A program made the translations under genes and the position numbers. The notes beneath the pieces are model-generated. The model was not told where the DNA came from, ran no database searches, and saw only the letters and a list, made by a program, of their open reading frames with translations. A DNA stretch of 64,000 bases, taken from contig CM102286.1 in NCBI GenBank assembly GCA_046563655.1, forward strand, positions 1,302,001 to 1,366,000, written 5' to 3'. Of the stretch, positions 4,116 to 57,899 are shown in pieces. Every line of letters starts with the position of its first letter. Within the stretch, counting starts at the first letter, position 1. The stretch is from Yuukianura sp. NJ FZ-2021. Taxonomy: Eukaryota.

Positions 4116-4360
4116 GGTTGAGGTAAGCTTTAACGACCGTCATTGTAGCCGCACAGTGTAGCCGCTCCGCCATTTTTTGTGGCTACAATGGGTCGCTACA
4201 CTGTGTGGCAACTCATGTTGCCACTTTAGGTTAGGTTAGGTTAGGTTAAAGTGGCTACTTAAGTTGCCGCTCAGGTGTAGCCACCCATTGTAGCCACAAA
4301 AAATGGCGGAGCGGCTACACTGTGCGGCTACAATGACGGTCGTTAATCCTTACCTCGACC
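4116..4360. mobile_element. 245-bp palindromic MITE with 8-bp TSD and central (TTAGG)n
   Basis: Arms of ~110 bp are inverted repeats with GG...CC termini; TSD AACATTTG at 4108-4115 and 4361-4368; centre is tttaggttaggttaggttaggttaaa. GG termini plus 8-bp TSD fit the Merlin superfamily (inference). Confidence 0.85.
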
Positions 4361-4597: not shown

Positions 4598-5709
4598 CAC
4601 GTTATGGCCAATGGATTATTTTTTGGCCAAACTTTTTTTTCGGAGATTTTGGTCGTTTTATATTCAAAACACCTACTGGTGACCCAAATTACCGGAAAAA
4701 AATTAATTAGGCTTGAAATTTTGAAAAAAACCGAAAAAACCGAAATTCGGATATTTCGGTGTTTCTGGAACTTTTATTCGGTTTTCTCAATTGGAAAGTA
4801 TAGATTAGTGTAAAAAATGCCTAAATTCCGAATTTCAGCTTAATCGGGTGAATAATGGCGGAGTTACAGCCAAAAAACCGAATTTCGGGCTCAACTTTGA
4901 GGAGCTCTCCCGGGAGTTCCAAAGGGATATTCGAAGTATGTAAGGTGGCGTTGGAAAGGTATTCCCTTGGGCTACAAATTATCTCTTACGACTTTTTCGA
5001 ATATACCTTTGGAAATTGAGATATGTCGCCCGAAATAAAAGCGACAATTCATGGAGGGAGCTTTGCTCCAAAAGCTATAGTTGACATATTTATAATTGGT
5101 TTTAAGCATCGCATTGGGTGAAATTGTGCTAAAATTATGTTACAATACGTTATACAAGTATAAGTTAATATAAAAGTAGTAATTGAACAAGTTGGTTCAA
5201 TTATTTCGGCTTTATTTTGTTTACGATTTTCTTTCGGCAATATTAATCCCCCCATGAATTGTCGCTTTTATTTCGGGCGACATATCTCAATTTCCAAAGG
5301 TATATTCGAAAAAGTCGTAAGGGATAATTTGTAGCCCAAGGGAATACCTTTCCAACGCCACCTTACATACTTCGAATATCCCTTTGGAACTCCCGGGAAA
5401 GCTCCTCAAAGTTGAGCCCGAAATTCGGTTTTTTGGCTGTAACTCCGCCATTATTCACCCGATTAAGCTGAAATTCGGAATTTAGGCATTTTTTACACTA
5501 ATCTATACTTTCCAATTGAGAAAACCGAATAAAAGTTACAGAAACACCGAAATATCCGAATTTCGGTTTTTTCGGTTTTTTTCAAAATTTTAAGCTTAAT
5601 TAATTTTTTTTCGGTAATTTGGGTCACCAGTAGGTGTTTTGAATATAAAACGACCAAAATCTCCGAAAAAAAAAGTTTGGCCAAAAAATAATCCATTGGC
5701 CATAACGTG
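4598..5709. mobile_element. 1.1-kb non-autonomous foldback element, Transib-like (CAC...GTG, 5-bp TSD)
   Basis: ~460-bp near-identical inverted arms (4598-~5059 and ~5248-5709), ~190-bp spacer, termini CACGTTATGG/CCATAACGTG, TSD TTGAG at 4593-4597 and 5710-5714. Confidence 0.85.
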
Positions 5710-6398: not shown

Positions 6399-7733
6399 GG
6401 CTCGGTCTAAAAAGCTGCAACTTTTCCTATGTGTTAAGAGCATGGGAAAAGGCTGCAACTTTTGCCTACAGTTAGCATGGCTAAAAAGCTGCAATTTCGG
6501 AAAAGGCTGCAAGCGTTATACTAAAGTACCCAGAACACATGTTGGACATATCCCCAGAACAGATGTTGGACATGTCCCTCTGTCCGTTTGTCCTTCGCAC
6601 AAGGTTACCATAGCTACTTTATGAGGTTCTATGTCATTCTGTCCATCTGTCAGACTTACCAAAGCTACTTTATGAGTTCTATTGTCACTCTGTCCATCTG
6701 ACAAAGTTACCAAAACTACTTTATGAGTTCTATTGTCACTCTGTCCATCTGACAAAGTTACCAAAACTACTTTATGAGTTCCAATGTCACTCTGTCCATC
6801 GGACAAACGTTGACGCTTCTCCTGGCGTTCCCTAACGTCCTAACGTCCCAAACTCCAGTTTTACATTTTAAAAAAGATTTTTTTTTCTCCATGAACTTTC
6901 TAAATTTTCATGCTTACCTAACCTTGATAAAAGTAACAAAGATCTTCAAAGCCGGTCATTTACATATTAAGTGGCAGTGTTAGAAGTGAAATATTTCACT
7001 TTTCAGTGAAAAGTGAAAAAAAACTGAAACTAATTCTAAAAAACCCTAAACGAAGAAAACCTCCAAGTAAAAGAAACTAAACTAAAAAAAAACAGCTGTA
7101 GTTTTTTTTAGTTTCTTTAAATTTTTCAGTTTTTTTTCATTTATTTCAGTTTCTTTAACTGAAACGAACAAAACTACCCGACCCTTAAAAATAAAAATAT
7201 ACAACACTTAAGTGGTGATAATTATGAATAATCTAAAGATTATTTTCAGTGACATATTTATAAGATGTAAGACTTTGTAAGATGGATAAAGTGACAGTGG
7301 AACTCATAAAGTAGTTTTTGTAACTTTTTCAGATGGACAGAATGACATCGGAACTCATAAAGTAGCTTTGGTAAGTCAGACAGATGGACAGAGTGACATA
7401 GAAACTCATAAAGTAGCTTTGGTAAGTCAGACAGATGGACAGAGTGACATAGAAACTCATAAAGTAGCTTTGGTAAGTCAGACAGATGGACAGAGTGACA
7501 TAGAAACTCATAAAGTAGCTATGGTAACCTTGTCCGAAGGACAAACGGACAGAGGGACATGTCCAACATGTGTTCTGGGGATATGTCCAACATGTGTTCT
7601 GGGTACTTTAGTATAACGCTTGCAGCCTTTTCCGAAATTGCAGCTTTTTAGCCATGCTAACTGTAGGCAAAAGTTGCAGCCTTTTCCCATGCTCTTAACA
7701 CATAGGAAAAGTTGCAGCTTTTTAGACCGAGCC
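6399..7733. mobile_element. Mutator/Foldback-like non-autonomous element A (9-bp TSD)
   Basis: ~400-bp inverted arms starting GGCTCGGTCTAAAAAGC with internal 45-bp tandem repeats; TSD CGTAAGTTA at 6390-6398 and 7734-7742. Confidence 0.9.
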
Positions 7734-9553
7734 CGTAAGTTAACATTTTAACAATTTGTGTTTGAATTATTCTGTCAATCATTTTCAATTTTTAATAACA
7801 TGAATCAATGTTTAAAAAATTTTCAGCTTGCTATTTGGAGAATCCTGTCATACGCTGGAGTTGAGGAACTGACGACATGTCGTCTCGTTAATCGGCGATG
7901 GAACGACATTTCATGCCTCTTCCTCAAAACAAAAATCAAACCAATCAAATTCAAATCTTTGCGAATATTGAATCATTTCCTGTCAACAATTTCTACAGGG
8001 TCAGAGGGATGTCCACTGCAAAATTTTAAGCTGGAATTCTACAAATTCAACCTGGATACTCTAGAAGAATTCTTACAGGCAGTGAAAAATCGTGTGAGGA
8101 AATTCGAAGTGGTACATAACCACTCCAAAGTTTATCGGCAACGTCCTGACGAAGATCTTTATGTCGAATACGGACGTCGCCTCGCCCTTATTCTTCGAAG
8201 TCTGACTCAAGTGCAGTGTCTTCAAGTCAAAATTGATGGCGGATTTTTGCTTTCAGCCGACCTCGAACTCAATTTCCCGAATCTGAAACGGCTTGAACTA
8301 AATATTTCACGGACAAAAGAAAACAATGAAGTTGAAATAATTCCAAAAATTGTTAGTGCTTCGCCATCCCTAAAGGAATTGGTGCTCAACATTTCATTTC
8401 CGGGTATCTGTTTTTCAAAAGTAGCAGAAGTACTTACCTTACTGCCAGCAGGAACGGTGGTTGACCTTTCCATGTACACTTCACCTAGACATTTCCTTCG
8501 AGATCTCATTTCCGGTTATACGAAACTTCTGGAGGTGAACGCTGTTTGTTTTTCTGGCCTTTCATTACCGTTTTCTCTTTCTGGTGATCCGAAAGTTGAG
8601 CAATTACTTTGGAAGCTTTTCAGTAAAAACGCTACATCTCTTCGTACACTATTTTTAAATCAAAAACAAAATATGGAGCAAGTTGAATTGGATCATGGAG
8701 AATTGACCTTTCCCTACTGTACAACATTGTCATTGCATGAAGTTGAAGGGATGACAGAGAATTCCTTTAAACTTTTCCCAAACATCACCAAGGTTAAACT
8801 CGAGATGTCAGAAATGGTATCGGATCTGGATGTACTTGAAGTGCTTGTTTCCAAGTTGCCGAAACTGGTCGAATTGGAACTTGGGTGTATCAAGACAGCA
8901 CCTCATCACCGTCAAGCCAGCACCTCAATTTCAGCACCGTCAAGACAGCACCTCATTTCAGCACCTCAGCTCTGTGTTAAAGGATACCCCACCGTCAAGA
9001 CATCACCTCAGCACCTCAATTTTTTTTTAAAAAAGTGAGGTGTTTGGGTGCTGACTTGACGCATCCCCCCCGGTGCGTCAAGTCAGCACCTCACTTCTAG
9101 CACCTCACTCCCAATGTTAAAGGGTGCATCATAAAAATTCAATTTCAAATCTAGGATTTTTTTTCCATTCTTCTGAAAATTTTTGGGGAGACACTACAGA
9201 GACCCCTCACAACAAAAAGCAAAAAAAAATTGACCGGAAATCGAAAAATCTACGGCTCGGTCTAAAAAGCTACAACTTTTCCTGTGTTAAGAGCATGGGA
9301 AAAGGCTGCAACTTTTCCTACAATTAGCATGGCTAAAAAGCTGCAATTTCGGAGGCTGCAAGCGTTATACTAAAGTACCCAGAACACATGTTGGACATGA
9401 CAATCTGTCCGTCTGTCCGTCGGACAACGTTACCAAAACTACTTCATGCGTTCCAATGTCACTCTGTCTATCTGACAAAGTTATCAAAGCTACTTTATGA
9501 GTTCCAGTGTCACTCTGTCTATCTGACAAAGTTACCAATTTTACCAATCTGAC

Positions 9554-10425
9554 TAGGGATGCCCCGATACATCGGTTGGCCGATACATATAGGCCTATTC
9601 TTGGCCTGTTTTTTAGAATAGGTGGATCGGCCGAAAAAATTTTTGGCCAGTTAAACTGGCCTGTTTTTACCTATTCTTTTTACTCAGAAATTTATTAGAA
9701 ATTTCACGAATTTCATCGAAAAATACTGAACTAACAAATTTTAAACAAGATTTAGCTGACCTAGGATGCTGTTTTCGGTGAATTAGTGAAAAGAAAGAAG
9801 TTAAAACTGTATAAAAGGTTAACTTAATTTAAATTACACACGTGAACCCTTGTTCTCCTATTTAAAAAAAACTTGACAGAACGACGTGGTGTCATCTGTG
9901 GGCATTACTGTGTACAGTGTTGCTAGATATCCACTTTTTCAACATTTCATCCACGGCTGGATATCCAGTGGAAGAAATGGACGAAATGGATAAATCCAAA
10001 GGGGCGGAGCTTTGCCCGCAGGGTATGCATAATTTGATAATAAAGAACGGAAAAAATCAAAAACAATGCAAAAACAACCGGAAATCGTGCTAAAATAAGT
10101 TAAAATAACAAAACCAATTAAGCAAAAGCGGTTTAAATAATTAATTAAAATATTTCCTATTATTTAACTTAAATTTATTTGAAATTGGCGCTGAATTTTT
10201 GAACTCAGCTGATTTCTTCCATCCACCGTCAGTAGGACCCCATTTCATCCACTGGATATCCGGTGGAAGTGGCAATTAAGCCACTGGACGTTTAAGCATC
10301 CAGCAACACTGGTAGGAGAAAAAACCGGCCGATGTATCGGCCGATGTATAGGTTTGCCTGTTCTTGGATTTGGAAAAAAACAGGTGTATCGGGTATCGGC
10401 CAAACCAAGAATCGGGGCATCCCTA
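9554..10425. mobile_element. hAT-like MITE nested in element B
   Basis: TIR TAGGGATGCCCCGAT / ATCGGGGCATCCCTA; 8-bp TSD AATCTGAC at 9546-9553 and 10426-10433; subterminal ggccgat/atcggcc repeats. Confidence 0.88.
9915..10311. mobile_element. Small TIR element nested in the hAT MITE
   Basis: Ends CAGTGTTGCT.GAT / ATC.AGCAACACTG with tggatatcc subterminal repeats; only GTA is repeated on the flanks, no 8-bp TSD. Confidence 0.6.
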
Positions 10426-10555
10426 AATCTGACAAATTTTAACTTATTAATAATCTAAATACATAATTGGCAAGGCAGATAAATGTTTGACTAAAACTCC
10501 TTCTCCAATAAAATATTTATTATGATAAAGGGAAATCAATTGTTACTATGAATAC

Positions 10556-10705
10556 TACAAGGACCATACCCTGCATAACATACCAGAGACGTAATTCTCA
10601 GATGTCATGCGCGAAGGGGCCATTGCACTGCGGTCTACCGTGTTGCCCGGTACTAATGACGACGGCAGGGCGAAACCGTATTAACTTGTGATTCTTTGCT
10701 TTTTT
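10556..10705 (+). ncRNA. Candidate structured, 5S-rRNA-like Pol III RNA inside element B
   Basis: GC-rich island in AT-rich DNA; 5S-like GACCATACC near the 5' end and GTACT..ATG..GAC.GC..GCGAAACCG near the 3' end; end pairing acaag/cttgt; internal stems; T6 run at 10700-10705. Confidence 0.35.
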
Positions 10706-11164
10706 ATTTAAGAATTCTCAATTCCATAATTGGCAAGTCTGACATTTGGACAGAGACAATGGAACTCATAAAGTAGCTTTGATAACTTTGTCAGATGGAC
10801 AGAGTGACATTGGAACTCATAAAGTAGCTTTGATAACTTTGTCAGATAGAGTGACATTGGAACGCATAAAGTAGTTTTGGTAAGGTTGTCCGACGGACAG
10901 ACGGACAGAGGGTCATGTCCAACATGTGGTCTGGGTACTTTAGTATAACGCTTGCAGCCTCCGAAATTGCAGCTTTTTAGCCATGTTAATTGTAAGGAAA
11001 AGTTGCAGCCTTTTCCCATGCTCTTAACATATAGGAAAAGTTGCAGCTTTTTAGACCGAGCCGTTGATTTTTTGATTTCCGGTCATTTTTTTTTGCTTTT
11101 TGTTATGAGGGGTCTATGTAGTGTCTCTCCAAAAATTTTCAGAAAAATGGAAAAAAATCTTTAA

Positions 11165-20272: not shown

Positions 20273-23200
20273 ATGAAAACGGGCAGTGGCGAGGCTGCAG
20301 CAGCCGAAGCAGCCAAAGATCCTGGCGTCACTAAATCCGATTTGGAAGATTTGAATTCCTCGGCTGGCACTCATTCTGAAAACTCAATTAGTCCTTGCCA
20401 GTCGCCAAATAGCGGTAAGTTTTTTTAAAAAGTCCTTTTTTAAAACAGGTCAATAACCTTTTTCTAAAAAAAAAACTTTTAAAAACTTCCTGACATTAGG
20501 CACCCAGTCACCACGAGAACGGAGTGACCACGAACACTCTCATTTTGAATCCGTTCCGCGCCATTTCATCCACCCATTTCTTCTCCGTGACTTTGAATCT
20601 GCTCATCACCACCACCAAAAACTACTCCTGGAAAACTGCACCCACCAAAATTCAAATTCTCCGCCCCACCAGCCCCACCCGCCCCACCTCAGCAATAAGT
20701 CAATCATTATTCCACAGGCTTTAAGAATGGCCCTGGGTCTCGGCGGGCCCAATTTCGGTCCAGGGCTATTTCAAGCTCCAAATGGAAATCCTGGTGGCCC
20801 GCCAAATTCAAATTCAAACGGCCCGCCAGTGCCCGCTCCCACGAGTGGCCCGCCTACCCACGGTGGCCTGCCTGCTCCAACTCCTTTGCTTCCGAATCAC
20901 ATGATGGCTGCTGCTGCTGCTGGACTTCCGACATTAAATTTTTCAGTGTCGCAAGTCGCCGCTGTTTGTGAGACGCTGGAAGAAAGTGGCGACATTGAGC
21001 GCCTGGCGCGTTTTCTCTGGTCCCTGCCTGTCGCTCACCCCAACATTGGTGAGCTGAGCAAAAGTGAGTCAGTGCTGCGTGCTCGTGCCATCGTGTGCTT
21101 CCATTCTGGCAACTTTCGTGATCTGTACCATATTCTGGAGACGCATAAGTTTACAAGAGACTCTCATGCCAAGTTACAGCAAATGTGGCTAGAAGCACAC
21201 TACCAGGAAGCGGAGAAGCTAAGGGGCCGAGCCCTTGGTCCGGTAGATAAGTACCGCGTGAGGAAAAAGTTTCCGTTGCCAAGGACAATTTGGGACGGAG
21301 AGCAGAAAACACATTGCTTCAAGGAACGAACACGGTCACTCCTACGTGAATGGTATCTGCAAGATCCGTATCCGAATCCGACTAAAAAGCGAGAACTGGC
21401 CACTGCTACCGGACTCACGCCGACACAGGTCGGCAATTGGTTCAAAAACCGGAGGCAGAGAGACCGGGCAGCAGCAGCTAAAAACAAGTAAGAACAATTT
21501 AAAAAACATTTTTCAAAAAAAAAAGTCAAAAGTGGTTAAAAATATTTTTTTAAAAAAAAGTTGCCCCACTTAAAGATTAGTGTAGGGTAGAAATAGTAGT
21601 TTTGGTTATGTACTCTGTCGTGTGTGTCGGTTCGTCCTGGATCAAACCGGTACTATGCAGGGAAAGGTGTTTTAGATTATGTACGATGTCAAGTGCCGGT
21701 TCGTCCTGCATCAAACCGGTATTTCGGTTCGATTCGGAAAGTCACGAGGTCAAAGATCAGTTAGGTTTGATCAGCAACTTAGAAAATTTGAATGGTTAGA
21801 AATTGGAATATTTTGTCTTTGTTTTTTAAATTTTCTGTTTCTGACGTTTTTTTTTTGGTTTCTCGAGCAGAGGAAAGTTTTGCTCGAGGGATTTGAACTT
21901 TAGCGGAACTTTGTGTTGAAAAATGGACCGAATTCGGTTCAAATTTAAGCTGGAACAAAACAAATTCTCTCCCCTTGGTCTGTGTTCCTTTGAATCGTAA
22001 TCTGATGTAGAGTGAGATTGAAAAATGATTCGGTGAGTAGATAAGAAATGATCAAAAAGACCCCCAGAAGGGGGCACAATGGAAACAGAACACTTTTTCT
22101 TTTGACCTCCCCTCTTGCTCCACTGAATCACACAGAATGAAAACATAACTTTTGACAAATGGCGTCACGTTGCGGCAGGCGTTCCTCAGTTCAAATTTTC
22201 CCGCTTTTTTGAAGTTAGCGTATTGAACAAATTCGCACGAGTCCTCAAGTATATACTCCAAAGTGCCACAGATTATCACACCATCAAGCACACTTTTATT
22301 TTCTACTGCAACGAAAGTTCAATTTTCCCCCTTTTTACATAAATTCAAGTCCCCAAGGGAAGAAATCCTATAAGAATTGAGTTTTTTTTTTTCAATTTTT
22401 CATTTTCGGTTATCCAAAATTTCAATTTGCTAGTCCAAAATTTTGACAGCCGCTTTTGTCGATGCAAAAAAAAACACTAGAAATTTGTTGTAACTTGATC
22501 CGCTGTGCTTGACACTTACGGTTTACTCTAACAAGTCCGTAATTGCATTCGGACTTGAAACTTGATCCGTGGCTAATGAGAATGTCTCTGTTCATAGCTT
22601 GGTCGATACCGTAAAGTTCCGAGAAAGTTTCAAAAGCAAGCCAAAACAGTTGAAACAAAGATGTTCTGTATTTGTTTTTTCTAAAACCCGGGAAAATCGA
22701 TTCGAGCGAGGAGCTTTACGGTATTAAGCTCATGATAAGATTAGAGTGAGATACCGTTTCGTTGTACCGGTTCTGTTAGATCCGGATATTCATCTTGTGG
22801 AGCTTTTACTCTAACATAATGAGGGTCTCAAGTTAGGTTTTGTAGGTTGTAGGCTGTAGGATGAAAAATAAGTGGAGTAAATCCCCTTCTAGCTTTCACC
22901 TTTGAGAGAAAGGAGAAAGTGTCTCATTTTCCCCCGTCGGCCATTTGTGTCCAGATCCAACACTTTCTTTGAACTTTTTAGAAAAGGCGAGAAAAGAGAA
23001 TTAACTCCAGCTCTCGATCCGGGTATTGTACCCCCCTCCCCCTTGTATTTTTTCAAGAGAGGGGGTTTAGGTGGGGGGATGCCCGGGTAAGTTCAAAAAG
23101 CGGGTATTATTTTGAATCCTAGACTGTGCGTTAGGTATGAGCTTAAAAGCATCTCCTTTCTGCTTTTGAGTTGGGCTCGATTGTCATTCTGCTCTCGACT

Positions 23201-26200
23201 TGAAGTTGACAAAAGACTTCCGGCGCAACAGGACTTCAAGAGGTATAATTTGCATCAAATTTTCAAAAATTTTGGCGCTCTAGTTTAAATGAGAGCAGGC
23301 TTTTGAGTGGAAAGTGGAGGGAATATTTAAAATGCTCCACTCCCTTTGAGTTGTTGAGTAAAGCGTATCACTTTTCACAGTGGGAGACTCCTGCTGAAGC
23401 AACACAAACTTAAATTCAAAATTTTATTTTTGAACAATTTAAAAATCAAATTCAATTGAAATTTTGAATTTTAATCACCTTGAATTATTACCTAGCAGCC
23501 TCATGATTTCCAAATTTAAAAAGTTTTTCAAGGGCCCCGCTGTTCTTCTGTAAAACCAAAAACTGCCGGTTTTGTTCAATTTCAGCATGTAAATTTTCTT
23601 GCACAAATTTTTTTGAAATTCTAGCTCTTATATTCCAAACAGTTTTGTTTAAAAAAAAACATAAAAACAGGGGAGAATTTTTTTTTTTTGGCAATTGCGA
23701 TCAATGTCAGTGTCCTTTGACCTTTTCAATTTTTTGAACCCTGTAATGTACACTTATGCTTTCCAACTTTTTAGTTCTGTACAATTTTACAAAAAGGCTT
23801 TTGTCATTTTTTTGAAAATAGTCTGATAATAGGCTGTAATGGATCCGGCTTCAATTCAAAATCTCCCGGGAGAACAAAAGTGCCCGCTCAAAATTCAAAA
23901 GTGGACCTTTGGAAAAGTGTCTCTACGGGGCCCTTCACAACCCAAAGGGGTCCTTAAATAAACTTTAGAACTTGATCCTAAACTGACTAATGATGAGGAG
24001 AAATGGAGAGGTCAGAGGTTAATCTCAACTTGAAATTGAAACCGACGCTTTTGTTCCTACCGGACTCTATTATTTTCGTCTTTTCTTTCAAAAAGAGAGG
24101 GAAGTTTCAAAAATGATCCAAAATACTGCTGTAATTTTACACCCAGCATTTACTGTCCGTTGTTCCTCCGCTCATGCGCACTGATTTTTCATTTTTTTGG
24201 AGGCGGATGTTTACTCATAAGATTCAAAAGAACGGAAACCGCACAGAGGTTATGTCTTGGGTGTCACCGTCTTAAGATTTTTGGAAAAAGGAATTTGGCG
24301 GTAAATTTTGAATTTGAAAAATACGAAGCATAAACATAATCTTTGGATTTTGTTTTTATCATGGGTGATTGTTCTGTCTGTGATGATGGTATTGCATGTC
24401 CAGAAGAAATTTGAGGAATTGAAAATGTTCGGTAGGAAAGATGATCAATCACAAAAATTTTGAACAAAGACATTTTGACCACAATAAGTTTATGGAATCC
24501 ATTCATTTTCGAAATCAAATCAGTTCAAAGTTTGCCGCTCCTTTGGTTTTGCTCAATCATCGCTTCCAGCAACCAATCACCATGCTCGAGACAGTTCCAA
24601 TTTTTCTTACCAATGCGAACAATTGAATTCTCATTTAAAGTAAATCACGCTCCACTAAAATAAAATGAATGTCTCTACTTCCTCAAGCACAAAAAAAAAC
24701 TCTTTCTTTCCAAAAAAAATTTATTGCATACTTTTTCCATTTTGAATTTTTTCCCACACTCATCATAAAGCATTGACCTAAAACTAAAAAAAATTTGATA
24801 CAAATACTGCCAAAATTGAAGCAAAATTGCAAAAAAAAAGAGTTTATATTAGTGACATGTTGTAAATCCGTTTGGTTTAACTGTTTAGCAGGAGCGGGAT
24901 TTTTGAATTTCAAAAACGAAATTAGCAAATGAAATTTTTGAAATTTCACTCTGATGGGGATTAGTAATTGACTTTGGTAGTTTCAATTTCTTTTGGTGAT
25001 AATTTGGTTGTTAGCAACTCAGTGTAAAAATCGAATCAGTTAATGAATCATTGATTGACATGGATGAGACACTTGCATGGAAGGAAACGAGTTTTAGTCT
25101 GTTGGGATTTCAAGGGGAGGGAAAATTCAAAAAAATGAACTTTTTCAGTAGTTTGAAGAAAGGATGAAAGATGAGAAGAGAGAAGCGAGAATCAAATCAT
25201 TCGACTGGAAAATATTGAGCAAACGAAAAAATTTTTTTTTCGATGAACAGCAGCAGGGAGATGAAGTAGTCAAGGCATAAATAAATGAACACGCTACGCT
25301 CGCTTCAACTTTTTTTTTGAAAAAGAGCGCCTAGGCTTCGAACTGAAAACAAAAGAAATTTTTCATTCTGTTTTTTTCACGGTGCGACGCTGTCTAAAAC
25401 GCCGCACCCTTGATGCAGAGGTGGTAGCCCGCAGGTAAACCTGCGCAGGTTGCAGGCCAACCTGCAGCACGTGCAGGCGGGCTCAACCTGCGGTGGATTT
25501 TTGCAGGCTGCAGGCGTGCAGGTTTTTATTTGGAAATGTTGCAGGCGGGCGGGTTCGGCCTGCAATGCTCTGCAGGCGCCTGCAGGAGCCTGCATTTCGC
25601 CTGCAGGCTGCGGGTTGTGATTTTTTGAGAGTTTATTCTCAGAAACTTCAAGAAAAGACAGAAACGAATAGAAAAATTACTTTGGAACGTTGAAGAATTA
25701 AAGTCAATGGAACTATGCAAAGTTTTTGCTGCACATTAGTTGCACTATAGGGCCTTTAAACAATAAATAATGAATCCGGAGGCAGAAATATGGTTAAGTA
25801 AAGTTGGCGTTACACTTGCCCGTGTAGGCAACGCAAGATTTGACAGTATAACTTTTGAGGATTTTTTTATGTGCAAGGATCCAGAATTTTTAAAAGTTAA
25901 ACAAACCAAAAGTAAGGTAGCAGTGTCGTAAAACAATTTATTACTAGGAATTTTTCTCCCTACGTGTTTGGAAAGGACAACCGACAGATAATCGAGGGTG
26001 ATTGAGTAATTGCCATTATACGCAAACGAATTTACGCAGTAGTTGTAAGTGTATATTAAAATTTTCGTAGATTACAGTTCGTATAAAAAAATTGCAGGCT
26101 AACTGCAGGCAGCCTGCGCAGGCTGCAGGCTGGCCTGCCGAAGAGCCTTGCAGGTGCAGGCGTGCAGGCTGCCGATTTTCGATAATTTTGCAGGCTGCAG

Positions 26201-29200
26201 GCGTGCAGGCTAAAAATTCCTGCAGTGCAGGCGGGGCAGGTTGGGGAAAATAGTTGCAGGCTACCACCTCTGCCTTGATGCTCCTAATCCCCTGAGAAAC
26301 AAAAAATTGAAGCTTAAGTAGAACCTCATCAAGACGTTATTAAAGTGTCAATGCCTCCATTTCAAAAACTTCAAAAAAATTGAAATTTTTGAAAAACCGT
26401 TTTTATTTCATATTTTAAAATCAATGCTGATTTTTGACAGCTCCAGACTTGTTTTCTTAAATGTTACGAATATCTTTCTTTCTTGAGGTGACAATTTGAG
26501 TTCATTTGGTTTCAGGGTTCTTTGTACCCTTGAGCATGGCCATGGATTTGCGCAGACGCAGATTATGTTTGAGTTTATCCATTTGAGCATGTACATCTTC
26601 AAAGTCACTTGACTTGTCACGAGAATCTGCCAAGTTGAGGCCAAGGTCAGGCCAAACTGGTCGCTCAGATTTCAGGTTTTGGATGAAATCGGGCCAATCC
26701 GATTTCGGAATTTTTTCACCTTGGTATTTTTGTTGCTCCAGTCGAATTGCATCGTTGATCACAAATTGACGATCTTCTTTGAGACTGTTCCGTATGTGCC
26801 GTCGATTGAGCCGAATCAAGTTCCGGTGCATGTCATGACGTTGACGCACGTCATCTTGACGTCTGACGTCTTGACGACAGAGACTTGCGGTGAAGTCATG
26901 GATGACCCGAGTGTACTTTTTCTAAAACCAAACCACTGTTAGATTTAGAGGTCAATGACCTTTGACCTTTGCTCTTGACTTACGTCATGAGTGACCTTCG
27001 AGGTCAACTTTTGCTTTGGCTTTGCTTCAACTGCTGGTTTCGGAACGTTCATAAGTTTAGCTTCTGCTTCGACATTCAAAGCATACGTTTGAAGAAGGCG
27101 CTTAATTTTATCCTGTGGCGGGGACAATTTTTTGTTCAAATAGTCACAGACGAGTTGCTTTCTTAAAAAATTCAAAAAAGTTAAAATTCGGAGAACAGAA
27201 TTTTGAAAAAAAAATTGTTAATTTTGAAACTACTGGCGTTGAAGCTGTTCAAGTTGCCGTTGTTCCAGTTTTTCATTTTTTGCAACTCCTACATCTCCAG
27301 CCATTTTTGAATCACCTTCTGTAAGGTACAGTTGGTAGCCAAAAGGCCCTTTGTAGCTGTCCAACCGTTTTACAGGAAATTTGTCAGCTAAAAAGTGACA
27401 ACAAGCCATAATGGCCACAAGCAATTTTGCCCACAAGTAATTTTGGCCAACTTCTTTATCTACCGGGAGTCAGTTTGGCCATTGTTTCACCAATGTTGAC
27501 CAAGTCTTGAGCTTTTGAGTCCGATAGTACAATGTTTTGCAACGGCAAAACAGGCGGGTACATTCCCCGCATGTTGGCTTCTTTTGCTCCACTACACTCG
27601 TCATAGTGACGATGAATGTCACCCAAGGAACAGTCAGTGGAGCAATACTGACAAAAAGTTGTTAGTTTTGGACATGTGACTCTCTGGAATTTGAAATTTT
27701 CGGAAATTTTGAACCGAAAAACTGGAATTTTTGAATTTGGAATGAAATTTTTTGTACCTCGTGATGTGACAGCAGAAATTTGTCAATCTTAAGCCCACAC
27801 GCTTTACATTGAGCAATTGTGTGAAATTCTCGATTGTGATTGGCTTCTTCCTCTAATCGAATTGACCGTCGACAACTGTTGCAGCGATACCAAATCCGAA
27901 GTCCTTTTACTTTCGAGCCTTTTCGTATCGCCGTTTCGACATCGGCCGAAACTCGTCCGTAAATCAGCGAACTTCAAAAAAATTCGTTTTTCAAAATTTT
28001 GGCTTTGAGTTTCAAAATTTTGAATTAGCTTACCCTCCTGGATGACAAGTTTCGACATTTGGCTCTGCTGTCACTTCTTGTTTCACATTCAGCGACGACA
28101 TTTTACGAGACTTTTTTAGAAATCCGTACGAACGCGTCTTTACATAAAAAATGGAGCTAAAGTTTAAAATGAGAAGATTTTGTTTTCAATATTTTCATTT
28201 CCGTTGCCAACAACAACTGAAGTGTCGAGAATTTTTTGACACTTTTCCAAAAAATTAATTTGGGCTAATTTGTATTTTTTTTAAAATTGAAAGACAGACT
28301 TTTCAAAAATTAAAAGTCAAATTTGTTCAAATGAATTTGTTCTGAAAACAATTAACCACTTTATGAAAAAAGTTCTTTCGTAATAAAATTAATTTTCCTA
28401 TTGTTCTTTTTCCCACTTGTCAAAAAAAAAGTTTTCAAATCTTGTCAACGACTTAACCAGAGCAGAACATCACTTTTTTATTTCTTTGTTTCCCCCTCTC
28501 TCCTCTACCATCGATTTGAATTCATCCAATTTCAAATTTACCCGCTCAACCTCCCCTCTGTTGTTTGCTTTCGTTTTCTAATTCTACAAAAATAAAATTT
28601 GAACTAATATAATTACGCTACAGTCCCATTTTCCTTGTTCTGTTTCAATAGTCGTAGCATTTCTGTTCAAACTACCCGGGTTTTTCACTTTTCCCGCCAC
28701 ACAACACAGGAAAATCGGATTGGGCTGTTGACACCCAGGCACAATGACTTTGATTCCAGTTTATTCTTAATCCGATAACCAGTTAATCAGTGCGTACAAA
28801 ACATTCATCATACACACAAAGAGTTTCTGTTTTCAAATCCTGCGCCACAACCGTTACGATTCAAATTTCCCAAACAAAATTTTTCAGTCATTAAATGCAG
28901 TTTGACAAAAAACATACAAAGAAAAGTTAAACAAAAATTAGGCCCGTTTTGAAAAAGTTGACAATTTTTTGAGTTAAGCCTCTGACACACTGGAGCGTCG
29001 TTTGTAAAAAAAAATTAATTCACTTTAGAGCCTAATCTGAAAATCTTTTTAGCAAATTGGTTCACCACGAACATTCGGATTACAATTGTTAGGCTAACAA
29101 ATGAAACAAAGCAGAATGTGTCACTGGGTCATCATTCTTCACAGCTATAGCCAGCATTCGGTATGGTTGAAACAAAGTTATGCATGAGTTGCATAATCTG

Positions 29201-53967: not shown

Positions 53968-54354
53968 ACATAAATTATAATATTTTATAATAATATATTA
54001 ACAAGTTTTTGAATTAATAAACTTGTTTAATTATGAAAAAGAATTATTTACGGCGAGAAATTGAACGCGAAGACAAAAGAGGAAAGAAATTCACAATTTT
54101 GTCTCACGATGCCCCACCACGAGTGCGTTGGCGGGTAACCAAAATTTGAATTTTATTTTTGGACTTGAATCGAATGTTCAATGTTGAGTTGAAGAAGGAA
54201 GCAGATTTTTTTTTTCATTATCAATATCATCCATCCATCACCATCTCCGTCTCCCACGCACTAAATAGTATTCACTGGCTACTAAGAACTTTATTCCAGA
54301 TAAGATTGTCCAAAAATTATTAATTGGTTGGTTGTGGTGTTCATCAAATACAGA

Positions 54355-54936
54355 ATGACAGAAGTTGCTAAAAAGGGGAAAGGGAAGTCACCGGAAGAAC
54401 TTATAGCAGGATTCAATTCTCTTCGGAATGACCAGAGACAAGTTGCTAATAAAATTTATGAATTGGAGAGTGACTTATCTGAGCACAAGTAAGTTAATTA
54501 GTTAGTAGTTTACTATACTATTAGAACGAGACTTTCCCGGGTATGTAACGTAAAGTAATGTCATTTGTTAAGACTTGTGTGAATTCCAGGGTCGTGATTG
54601 ATAATCTGAAAACGGTGCCTGAAGAACGTAAGTGCTACAGGATGATTGGTGGAGTATTAATCGAAAGGACAGTGAAAGAAGTCCTACCAGATCTGGAAAA
54701 TAACATGGAGCAGGTATTGCTAACCTTCAGGCCTTACTAGTAAAAGCTAGATGTTAACTGAAGTGTTTGTAATTTGAGGATTGGTTTGTTGTTAGCTCAA
54801 GAATGCCGTCGAGATGCTAAATAAGAAATTAGTGGAGAAGGGCAAGGAAATTCTGGAGTACAAGGAGAAGCACAACATCAAGTTTCAAGTACCGGATAAA
54901 ATTATGGAAGAAGATGAATTAAAACAGGCGTCTTAA
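54355..54936 (+). CDS. PFDN2: Prefoldin subunit 2 (3 exons)
   Basis: MTEVAKK...FNSLRNDQRQVANKIYELESDLSEHK | VVIDNLKTVPEERKCYRMIGGVLIERTVKEVLP | LKNAVEMLNKKLVEKGKEILEYKEKHNIK...; the RKCYRMxGGVLxERTVKEVLP motif is characteristic. Confidence 0.93.
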
Positions 54937-55037
54937 ACTTTTATCTTCATAATTTTCAAGTGATCTTTTCATTTATAACATTTTTGAATAATTTCATTAA
55001 CATATATAAATTTTTATTTTAATCGTTTTTCAATCTA

Positions 55038-57899
55038 TTAGTCTTCAACGCCTTCTCTTGGATCCACAAAGGACACCAAAATATAGCGAGTTCCATTCGT
55101 AACTTTGAGACCTTCGTGTTTATGCTGTAACAAACAGTTCAATTAGTAATTGACTTAATTGTTTTAATTTCTGTTAAGGACTCACTGTGAATTGTCCAGG
55201 ATGTAGGAATCCCCATCCCAGTCGAGTGTCAGTCACTGAGCAATTGAATCTCGTAAATCTACAACCTCCTCCTTCGAAATCTTTATTTGGAGTATTGAGG
55301 GCAATGTTCAGCGTGTACGTCGATTCATCAAAATGTGGTTTCAGTTCCCGTTGATCCTCCGCCGTATATCGGACTACAAATGCTTGAGTTGTCGTTGGTG
55401 GATAGACTTCGTAGTCTTTGAAAACTTTTTCCTGGAGAGGAGTGATATACAGTCTCAGGAATTCGTGAAACTGTCGATCAAATCCAATTTCGTTCATCTG
55501 AATATCAACAGTGGGGTACAAGTCTCCTCGTGCTTCGATACTTCCGTCAGCCCAATTGCCATTGTTCTCCATTTCTTCAATCATTTCTTTAGCAAATCGC
55601 GGTGTAACAATTGGAAACCAAAAGACATCTCTACAGGGTTCCAGCGGTTCGTAAGTTTCGAGTAAACTCTCGGTATAGTTTGGATGAATATAGCGATTGT
55701 CCCAGTCAAACCGATTGTCAAATATTTGGTATAGCTCGTCATGTAAGTGGCCCATTTCGAAGTTGTCGTTAATCACGAGATGTCCAGGATGGAATTCATT
55801 TGTAACGTGCATGAATAGGCCAAGATCACGGTTGTGTTGAGCAAAAGCCAAGTCTGCATCGGCTAGTCCATTAAGAAACGTTGGTCGGGTGACATTGTCA
55901 GCCAAAACGCTCATTTTTATCAAGTAGGCAGCGTTGACAAACGGAACGTTCCAGATTCCTTTGTGCCGATCTTCAGCAATGTCATCAAAGTCGGAAGATT
56001 TGGCGAAAAATCCATCCGGCGTGAGTGCTCCCCAGAAATTACAGATGTTTGGCAAGAAATCGGTGTTTGTGCATAACATGGGACTGATGATGAATTTGTT
56101 TGATTCAATTAGATTCCGGAGTGTCCCTTCTTCATCCAAATGTGCAGTGCCGTCAACACTGAACCAAAATTCTGCTTTTGTTTCCAGTGCCCACTCAACT
56201 GCTAAAGTTCGTGCTGCCCATTCTTTGATTCTTTCCTTGGATGGAATGTACTTGACACTTCGGTACTCGTCGCGAGTCTTGTCCAGAAACCGGTCAACGT
56301 CCTTCACATTATACCTGCAGGGTTCAATATTTCCCAGTAAATGTTACCATTTCCCATGGCGGTGGGAAATACCGGGAATCGGGCGGGATTTAAATTTTGT
56401 TGGTTCCCTACTTTACTTTTTTCATTTCATATTTCCCACTATTTCCCACTCTCTCAAAAATTCGTGTGTGTGCGTTTCGCAGAACGGCAAATACCGGTAT
56501 TTCCCGCCATATTTCCCTGTATATACCATACTGGAACTCTGCATACCTGTAATGATTGTGCACGAAGAGATGGATTTTGTTTTTGGGGTAATCCAATCCT
56601 TCTATGTTGTCAAAGAACTCTTCCATAAAAGGTGTTGGACGTTCGACGAAGATCGACATGGCGACGACCGGTAGCTGTTCGTCGTCGTCCGGTAGTAGCT
56701 GGATCTTGTCTTCTGGAAGTGTTGGGGTCAAGTAACTTCCGAGTGAGTTGAGATACGTAAGTGAGTTTCCACTTTTACATAAATTGGTTTGAATAATATG
56801 AACTGGAAGTGATGGAGATTTTGTTTTCAATGTAGGAAACAGGAAAACTCCATCTTTACTCAACGTCAAATCCAAGTTGATCTTTGCAGAATCTTCCATA
56901 ATCGTATGAAACAGCACCGATTCAAGATCAAGGCCAACACCATCTTGGTTTCTCTCTTTCTCACCTCCATAGACACTACTGAACAGATCAGCCACCGATT
57001 CATGTTGTGTTGTCGTCGTACTTTTGAAAATTCGAGCCAAATCTTTAACGTAACCAACAAATCCAGCAAAGTTTGCGTACCGCTGAGTTCCGTTTTTATT
57101 GATGCCGGAAATTGCTGAGGAGAGGCATGGAGTGGCATCAGTGGATAGCAGAACTCTGTACTTGGAGAAATACGTTTTGAAAACGTTGATAATTTCTTCT
57201 GGACTGGACAAGACCATGGTGAGGTCATGTTCAACGTAAAGCAAAATGTCACCATCTTGTGCTTCTGCTCCGATTTTCCTAATGGCACTTTTAATTGTTT
57301 CCAATTTAACTACTTCTGGAGGAGATCTGGAAGCAAGGTTTGCTTTAGTTGCTTCGATTATTCGCAGACTCGAACCTTGCTCAAATCCATTGAAAATTGC
57401 TCTTCGAACAAATCGTGTCAGCGATTCGTCAGTATCAACATTTCCCTGGAGCAGAGTCAACAGTGTCAGCGATGGTTCTAGAACATAATAAAAAGCGTTT
57501 TGAAATTATTCACGATTACATGCAAAAACGATTTCATGGTATCACGCATCGTTGCGTCGCATCAAGACCGAGGATTTTTTGAAATTTTGACAAATGGTTT
57601 TAATCTCGACATAAAAATTCAATGGGCACGAAAAAGCAAAAAATCATAATTTTTTTTTTCTGTTTTACAGGTGAATGGACCATGATCCTGAAAACCGGTT
57701 TTCAAGGCCTCCGGGTTTAAAAGACTTAATGCCTTGGATAATCTTTTCGGCTAAAAATGTTTTTTCATTTATGAAATTTTGAACACTTTTTTATTAAAAT
57801 TTTGAAAATTTTGGTTTTCTTACCAGCGATTTCTTCGGAACAATAGACTACACAAGTTAGAAAGGAGTAGAAAAGATGCAAATACGAAAGACTCTTCAT
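55038..57899 (-). CDS. PLOD: Procollagen-lysine 2-oxoglutarate 5-dioxygenase (PLOD/lysyl hydroxylase)-like
   Basis: Signal-peptide exon 57899-57824; exons 57477-56547, 56314-~55184 and ~55125-55038. Motifs PTPFMEEF, LDYPKNKIHLFVHN, NFWGAL, GIWNVPF, PTVDI, PHFDESTYTLNIALN, HKHEGL..TNGTRYILVSFVDP. Confidence 0.9.
56318..56541. mobile_element. 224-bp hAT-like MITE that forms a PLOD intron
   Basis: Imperfect TIR CAGGGTTCAATAT / ATACTGGAACTCTG; 8-bp TSD TATACCTG (56310-56317) and CATACCTG (56542-56549), 7/8 identical; internal atttccc/gggaaat repeats. Confidence 0.8.

Follow-up and report, generated by a model that had tools for sequence, protein, structure and literature searches.

A probable lineage-specific intron gain in a PLOD/LH3-like gene of Yuukianura sp., made of one hAT-like element and one copy of its target site

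Introduction

Can a transposon become a whole intron through nothing more than the letters of the site where it lands? This question is raised by a PLOD/LH3-like gene on the minus strand of a 64,000-nt stretch of DNA from Yuukianura sp. NJ FZ-2021 (assembly GCA_046563655.1, contig CM102286.1, positions 1,302,001 to 1,366,000), referred to here as the window, in whose own numbering all coordinates are given. An earlier interpretation made from the letters alone (the sequence-only reading) had proposed an "introner-type intron gain" in this gene, caused by a short element and its target site duplication (TSD). According to our analysis, the second intron of the gene is likely to be a lineage-specific gain, made wholly by one hAT-like non-autonomous element (a MITE, or miniature inverted-repeat transposable element) plus one TSD copy. 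That part of the proposal stands, as judged from relatives, from the exon join and from other copies of the element, whereas the mechanism in which the TSD alone provides the splice sites is not new in itself, since it has been described in Polarella.

Anatomy of the insertion and exactness of the join

The features on which the argument depends are the following:

56547-57477, minus strand: exon 2 of the PLOD/LH3-like gene, 931 nt; N-terminal glycosyltransferase-like part, terminating in ..HNHY plus AG; aligns to residues 21-312 of 6fxk_A (human LH3)
56542-56549, minus strand: upstream TSD copy, CAGGTATG; its CAG is exonic and its GTATG forms donor positions +1 to +5
56315-56546, minus strand: predicted intron 2, 232 nt, GT..AG, phase 2; equal to the element plus 8 bp
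56318-56541, minus strand: the element, 224 bp, non-autonomous and hAT-like, without coding capacity
56310-56317, minus strand: downstream TSD copy, CAGGTATA; its CAG forms the acceptor and its GTATA opens exon 3
55186-56314, minus strand: exon 3, 1129 nt; accessory and lysyl-hydroxylase parts; open for 376 codons

Read on the gene strand, the site runs from the end of exon 2 (..CATTACAG) into GTATG, then through the element (CAGAGTTCC...GAACCCTG) to CAG, after which exon 3 starts with GTATAATGTG. The two 8-bp direct repeats are identical at 7/8 positions and abut the element termini directly, and the 232-nt GT..AG unit from 56546 to 56315 equals the element plus exactly one repeat copy. The repeats, the 224-bp element, the donor at 56546 and the acceptor at 56315 had all been given correctly, in coordinates and letters, by the sequence-only reading.

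The element and its TSD thus delimit the candidate intron, and excision of the 232 nt brings back the reading frame, giving ..HNHYR/YNVKDVD.., colinear with human LH3. In LH3 numbering, the join closes gap-free, as residue 318 of exon 2 corresponds to residue 312 of 6fxk_A and residue 12 of exon 3 to residue 326, with Tyr319 and the split Arg codon lying between them. The same is observed with P0001, a relative whose residues 1-261 align up to 56543 and residues 260-638 from 56316, so that both segments abut at the site. The exact return of the frame, which had been claimed before, is confirmed by both alignments.

The lone mismatch between the TSD copies is a G at donor position +5, against an A in the exonic copy, where it is the first base of an Asn codon. 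Three relatives (L008, P0001 and P0241) all have Asn at the matching codon and, because this codon is kept in 3/3 of them, the change must have occurred in the intronic copy. The donor, CAG/GTATGC, matches the consensus at 7/9 positions, compared with 6/9 before the +5 change, which agrees with the earlier suggestion that the mismatch is intronic and makes a better donor. A branch-like site (TTTAC) is found ~23 nt before the acceptor, and the folded intron RNA has its ends paired through the terminal inverted repeats (TIRs) of the element, with a minimum free energy of -64.9 kcal/mol (z = -2.8; 0/200 shuffles as good). In the folding model, this pairing may help to bring the splice sites together. 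A U12-type intron was rejected by eye, as the donor GTATGC does not carry the U12 consensus.

Is the element removed from the transcript?

Several observations weigh against an intron gain, and they are given in this and the next two sections beside the explanation that each of them would favour. One alternative, which we consider unlikely, is an insertion that is not spliced and disrupts the gene, which would then be a pseudogene or encode a truncated product. Retention of the element would continue the frame for 45 codons and then reach a stop (232 is not a multiple of 3). All five sequencing runs listed (5/5) are DNA and none is RNA, and the protein search, in both length classes, returned no transcript-derived protein of this species, the best matches being 77% and 68% identical. 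Additionally, the pyrimidine tract before the acceptor is weak (~7/18), poorer than those of introns 1 and 3. Against this alternative, exon 3 keeps an open frame over 376 codons, with 77% identity to a relative, and the locus is the only one for PLOD in the window, where tblastn with three PLOD proteins found no second copy. Evidence against it comes also from the variants of the locus itself.

Contigs of four DNA runs were aligned to 55900-57000 at 80% likeness. In run X1, from organism A, 56125-56633 is spanned by two contigs of 509 nt: the first, at depth 29.3, shows 0 differences, and the second, at depth 19.4, shows 60, along with 18 gap letters. Added together, the two depths amount to that of the shared flanks (~48.6), as would be seen for alleles or for variants within a pooled sample. 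At least 3 variants cross the 56318 boundary in run X3 and, over 56282-56842, a contig from organism B shows 31 differences, plus 40 gap letters. The element is present in all the haplotypes seen in organism A and also in organism B. No empty-site joint across the element was reported in the aligned contigs, although contigs drop rare variants, so an empty allele may exist.

The comparison of these variants is based on 40 of 116 differences and 12 of 34 indels. Among those 40 differences, 29 are exonic, 23 of them synonymous, and in exon 3, downstream of the element, synonymous changes amount to 15 of 17 (the other 2 being non-synonymous), with a binomial P of 6e-9 against the fraction of 0.21 expected for random changes, a fraction that transition bias would raise somewhat. 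By contrast, the intron itself has diverged by ~20% between alleles, as ~49/60 of the differences between the X1 variants fall within its 232 nt, a value of the order of the rough estimate of ~13% for synonymous sites; moreover, the 12 indels compared, of the 34, are all inside the element. As every allele carries the element, selection on exon 3 acted after the insertion, which would be difficult to account for if the element stayed in the messenger RNA. Purifying selection on the downstream exon thus suggests that the element is spliced out of the PLOD transcript, even if changes in splice sites or exons may be present among the differences beyond the 40 and the indels beyond the 12.

As a separate observation, runs X1-X3 of organism A contain, across 55900-57000, two to three very divergent variants of the locus, which differ by ~4% in exons and ~20% in the intron. 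The pattern suggests very high heterozygosity, a sample that was pooled, or old divergence of alleles under asexuality.

Was the intron gained in this lineage?

A second explanation would be that the intron is ancestral, kept here and lost in relatives, and that its transposon-like features are a coincidence or the result of a later insertion into an old intron. The sequence-only reading expected relatives to lack an intron at this site, and the open reading frame (ORF) is indeed continuous over it in 3/3 closer relatives, namely P0001 (77% identical), P0241 (68%) and P0012 (60%). The last of these is encoded on L008, which is certainly genomic, since it has its own 66-nt GT..AG intron at YPPKT/DQAF (L008:2075-2160), a point where exon 3 of the window is continuous; over the site, L008 reads CAC AAC CAT TTC AAG TAC AAC GTG. 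The ORF of P0001, which has 660 aa and lies on a contig of 4045 bp, gives ..HLFIHNQFKYNTKHV.. uninterrupted over the site and, because its end runs into the last intron (GQFT followed by VSRNSN..), it most likely represents unspliced genomic DNA. Similarly, P0241 reads ..HNHYKYNTPY.. over the site and ends in ..GSIE followed by VRDSN, which resembles intron read-through. It must be considered that the genomic nature of P0001 and P0241 is judged from these read-through tails alone.

A wider sample is provided by 80 metagenome loci that encode PLOD relatives, 15 of which have introns and cover the site. Twelve of the 15 are continuous across it. The other three (L062:3885-3950; L063, nearly the same sequence as L062; and L074:3140-3240) have an intron in the same conserved motif, HNx/VEYH, which implies that this region held an intron, 5 nt upstream, in other animals and speaks for an ancestral origin. 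All three are distant homologues of PLOD, with 30-40% identity to the Folsomia protein, and their intron is in phase 0, after the codon aligned to Folsomia N340, whereas that of the window is in phase 2 of the codon aligned to E342; as position and phase both differ, it is not the same intron. The closest metagenome relatives, L001 (81%) and L018 (86%), stop short of the site and are uninformative about it.

It also counts for this explanation that the splice consensus by itself often produces direct repeats at intron junctions: 26/100 conserved Drosophila introns have repeats of at least 5 bp there (PMC3296678). However, the element and one TSD copy make up the whole of the window's intron, with no old intron sequence remaining, and the termini of the element are confirmed by other copies (see below). 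An ancestral intron is consequently a very improbable source of this one, and the explanation that we favour continues to be a gain by insertion.

It may be added that P0241 seems to have an intron at GSIE/ and L008 the one at YPPKT/DQAF, from which intron positions would appear to change quickly in this intron-poor PLOD clade.

The element and its repeat family

Short TIRs (10-25 bp) and 8-bp TSDs are described as hallmarks of hAT transposons (PMC3942097). The element has the 8-bp TSD, on this one copy, but its TIRs (CAGAGTTC and CAGGGTTC) match at 7/8 positions, or 8/10 when extended, with similarity decaying thereafter; they are thus short, below the range quoted, a point against the explanation proposed here. 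Other features of the element are five copies of a subterminal motif of the TATTTCCC / GGGAAATA type and internal inverted arms at 56361-56375 and 56494-56508 (93%). Its ends, CAGGG and CAGAG, fit the C/T-A-purine-N-G start usual for hAT ends, while its TSD does not fit the target preferences of the Ac or Buster groups. From this combination, we infer that the element belongs to the hAT superfamily.

A signature of TSD and TIR is not, by itself, beyond chance. A structural scan of the whole window for 8-bp repeats with at most 1 mismatch, flanking 10-bp TIRs with at least 8 matches, 60-3000 bp apart, gave 320 hits, mostly low-complexity and AT-rich, and it was therefore rejected as a test of significance. 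Furthermore, the TSD is weak evidence alone because its letters largely coincide with the splice consensus. The weight of the case lies instead in the exact fit of the intron to the gap against intron-less relatives, and in further copies in the genome whose ends fall at those termini.

These copies are apparent in the aligned contigs. Contig depth over 56307-56380 is ~2.5-5x that of the flanks and is also raised over 56455-56528, while the middle of the element shows no excess; in run X2, up to 11 contigs have a variant at 56343. Other contigs match 56318-56378 and 56475-56517, and their alignments begin at 56318-56322 beside five unrelated flank classes. Another copy, matching 56475-56517, continues to ..GAACCCTG, the same 8-mer terminus, and then to variable letters. 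The unrelated flanks beyond it mark 56318 as a genuine end of the transposon, and the same very probably holds for 56541. Multiple dispersed copies with shared termini are thus found in the contigs of organism A and likewise in the second organism, B (run X5), which places the element in a repeat family, in keeping with the sequence-only reading. A second copy was found neither in the 64-kb window, where the best non-self BLAST match has 28 nt (82%, E 0.039), nor in the 80 metagenome loci mentioned above.

Two further hAT-like elements with perfect 8-bp TSDs are located in the window at 9554-10425 and 25416-26272 (9546-10433 and 25408-26280 with their TSDs), one with TSD AATCTGAC and a 15-bp TIR starting TAGGGATG, the other with TSD CCTTGATG and a 14-bp TIR starting CAGAGGTG. 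Their perfect TSDs indicate that hAT-like elements have moved in this genome.

The identity of the element also bears on a third explanation, namely that double-strand-break repair captured a copy of it as filler DNA, without transposase, the 8-bp repeat being a repair microhomology. Intron gains by break repair that leave short direct repeats have been reported in Daphnia and Drosophila (cited in PMC3296678), the TSD lies outside the two hAT target patterns just mentioned, and no transposase ORF was seen among the 12 scanned of the 22 window ORFs of at least 130 aa. We nonetheless give this explanation very little credence, as the insert is a whole element with both termini, bounded exactly by a repeat whose length of 8 bp is typical of hAT (PMC3942097), and other elements with 8-bp TSDs are present in the window.

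A proposed history of the intron

If the intron was gained by transposition, as we propose, a 224-bp non-autonomous hAT-type transposon would have inserted into a ~2-kb coding exon (exons 2 and 3 joined have 2060 nt, 931 + 1129) of the PLOD/LH3-like gene, at an 8-bp target, CAGGTATA, that happened to hold the proto-splice site CAG/GT. Target duplication would have placed CAG/GT at both ends, with the upstream copy becoming the donor (56546) and the downstream copy the acceptor (56315). The spliceosome would then excise 232 nt in phase 2, made up of the element with one TSD copy, and the original frame would be returned exactly. Later, the intronic TSD copy would have mutated from A to G at donor +5. 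The insertion would be old, being fixed in every sampled haplotype and absent from related species. This order of events is inferred from the comparisons described above.

Known systems and the introner question

Among the systems most similar to this one are the class 14 introner-like elements of Polarella glacialis (10.1101/2020.10.14.339549). According to that work, both splice sites are likewise derived from the TSD (with an AGG+H target motif), the intron equals the element plus one TSD copy and orientation is irrelevant. The differences are that those TSDs have 4 nt, that the host is a dinoflagellate and that a single family accounts for hundreds of introns, whereas here the TSD has 8 nt, the host is an animal and one intron is known. 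The introners of Micromonas and Aureococcus, as described in PMC11282704, are also short, TIR-bearing, non-autonomous DNA transposons that become introns, with the TSD giving a splice site. By contrast with our case, one of their splice sites is their own, the other comes from a 3-nt TSD, and there are thousands of copies in these algae.

In hexapods, a Doc retrotransposon forms an intron in Drosophila sechellia (PMC3296678) and, as in the window, this is a one-off intron made by a transposable element and recognised by its TSDs. There, however, the element is a retrotransposon and, because one of the TSDs sits 15 nt past the end of the intron, the TSD does not account for both splice sites. 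Finally, the hAT-derived MITEs of insects (PMC3942097) are likewise short and non-autonomous, with short TIRs and 8-bp TSDs, but are not described as whole introns in the part of that paper accessible to us.

Single introns made by transposons are on record from many eukaryotes (PMC3296678). Since both these and the TSD-only mechanism have been published before, the PLOD intron of the window is a clean new example of an already known kind. Nevertheless, animal introns whose origin is legible at every base are few, and here the intron consists of the transposon and the target duplication alone. It has, besides, survived long enough for its haplotypes to diverge by ~20% while the exon behind it stayed under selection. 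The case suggests that an ordinary hAT-type element, without splice signals of its own, can make what would be a working intron if its 8-bp target contains AGGT. By our estimate, AGGT is present in ~2% of random 8-mers, so a low rate of such gains is to be expected in any host where elements of this type are active, terrestrial hexapods among them.

The case would matter much more if the family had done this repeatedly, that is, if it were a true introner in a terrestrial springtail-like hexapod and it, or the hAT MITEs of this lineage generally, had seeded many lineage-specific introns. In that event, since the 8-bp TSD provides both splice sites, every insertion into an exonic ..AGGT.. target would start out as an intron, whichever its orientation. 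We consider this improbable. None of the five flank classes of other copies (0/5) shows AGGT or ACCT abutting the element (30-nt flanks, with the offset uncertain by 1-4 nt), and these flanks speak, if weakly, against a family that makes introns repeatedly. As for published surveys, one that covered 3,325 genomes detected introners in 5.2%, with a frequency 6.5 times higher in aquatic species (PMC9860276); Folsomia candida and Orchesella cincta have zeros in its supplement, which we read as no introners found, and our literature search, limited to the library available, found no paper on introns made by transposons in Collembola.

The PLOD/LH3-like gene and its neighbours

The remaining parts of the gene model are:

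57824-57899, minus strand: exon 1, 76 nt; signal-peptide-like start; ends in phase 1
57478-57823, minus strand: intron 1, 346 nt, GT..AG; the P0012 alignment begins at 57475, adjoining the acceptor
55125-55185, minus strand: intron 3, 61 nt, GTGAGT..ACAG; the P0001 ORF reads through the same place (GQFT/VS..)
55038-55124, minus strand: exon 4, ..HKHEGLKVTNGTRYILVSFVDPREGVED and then a stop, with an approximate end coordinate; residues 727-750 of P0009 align to 55130-55059

The first exon opens with the ATG at 57899 (MKSLSYLHLFYSFLTCVVYCSEEIA), followed by the donor G/GTAAGA, and its phase agrees with that of the acceptor at 57478/57477. The assignment to PLOD/LH3 is based on colinearity with the solved structure of human LH3 (6fxk_A) over the full length: exon 2 matches residues 21-312 (E 1.2e-09) and exon 3 matches residues 326-693 (E 6.8e-91), including the C-terminal 2-oxoglutarate-Fe(II) oxygenase part, while exon 4 aligns to the C-terminus of P0009. 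The best matches among named PLOD proteins are those of Folsomia (51%) and Orchesella (50%).

In the interval 54304-55124, a convergent, plus-strand prefoldin-like gene (last exon at 54796-54936) ends ~100 nt from the end of the PLOD gene, and the 3′ untranslated regions of the two probably overlap. Elsewhere in the window, elements of foldback or MITE-like type, whose 40-bp ends are nearly perfect inverted repeats, lie at 4116-4360, 4916-5390, 6577-7555 and 9184-11131; for 4916-5390 and 6577-7555, what look like "TSDs" are palindromic and may belong to the repeat itself.

Along with the prefoldin-like gene, the window encodes other animal genes, namely Six3/optix-like, Med30 and ferroportin. 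For the Six3/optix-like ORF (20457-21491, plus strand), the best named full-length match is from Allacma fusca (74%, covering 95% of the query), and Orchesella and Folsomia come next. Together with the PLOD matches, this is consistent with a springtail-like hexapod. The top score (613 bits), above those of all arthropod matches, goes to a protein labelled as from a bird, Zosterops borbonicus (84%, covering 50% of the query), which may reflect arthropod contamination in that assembly.

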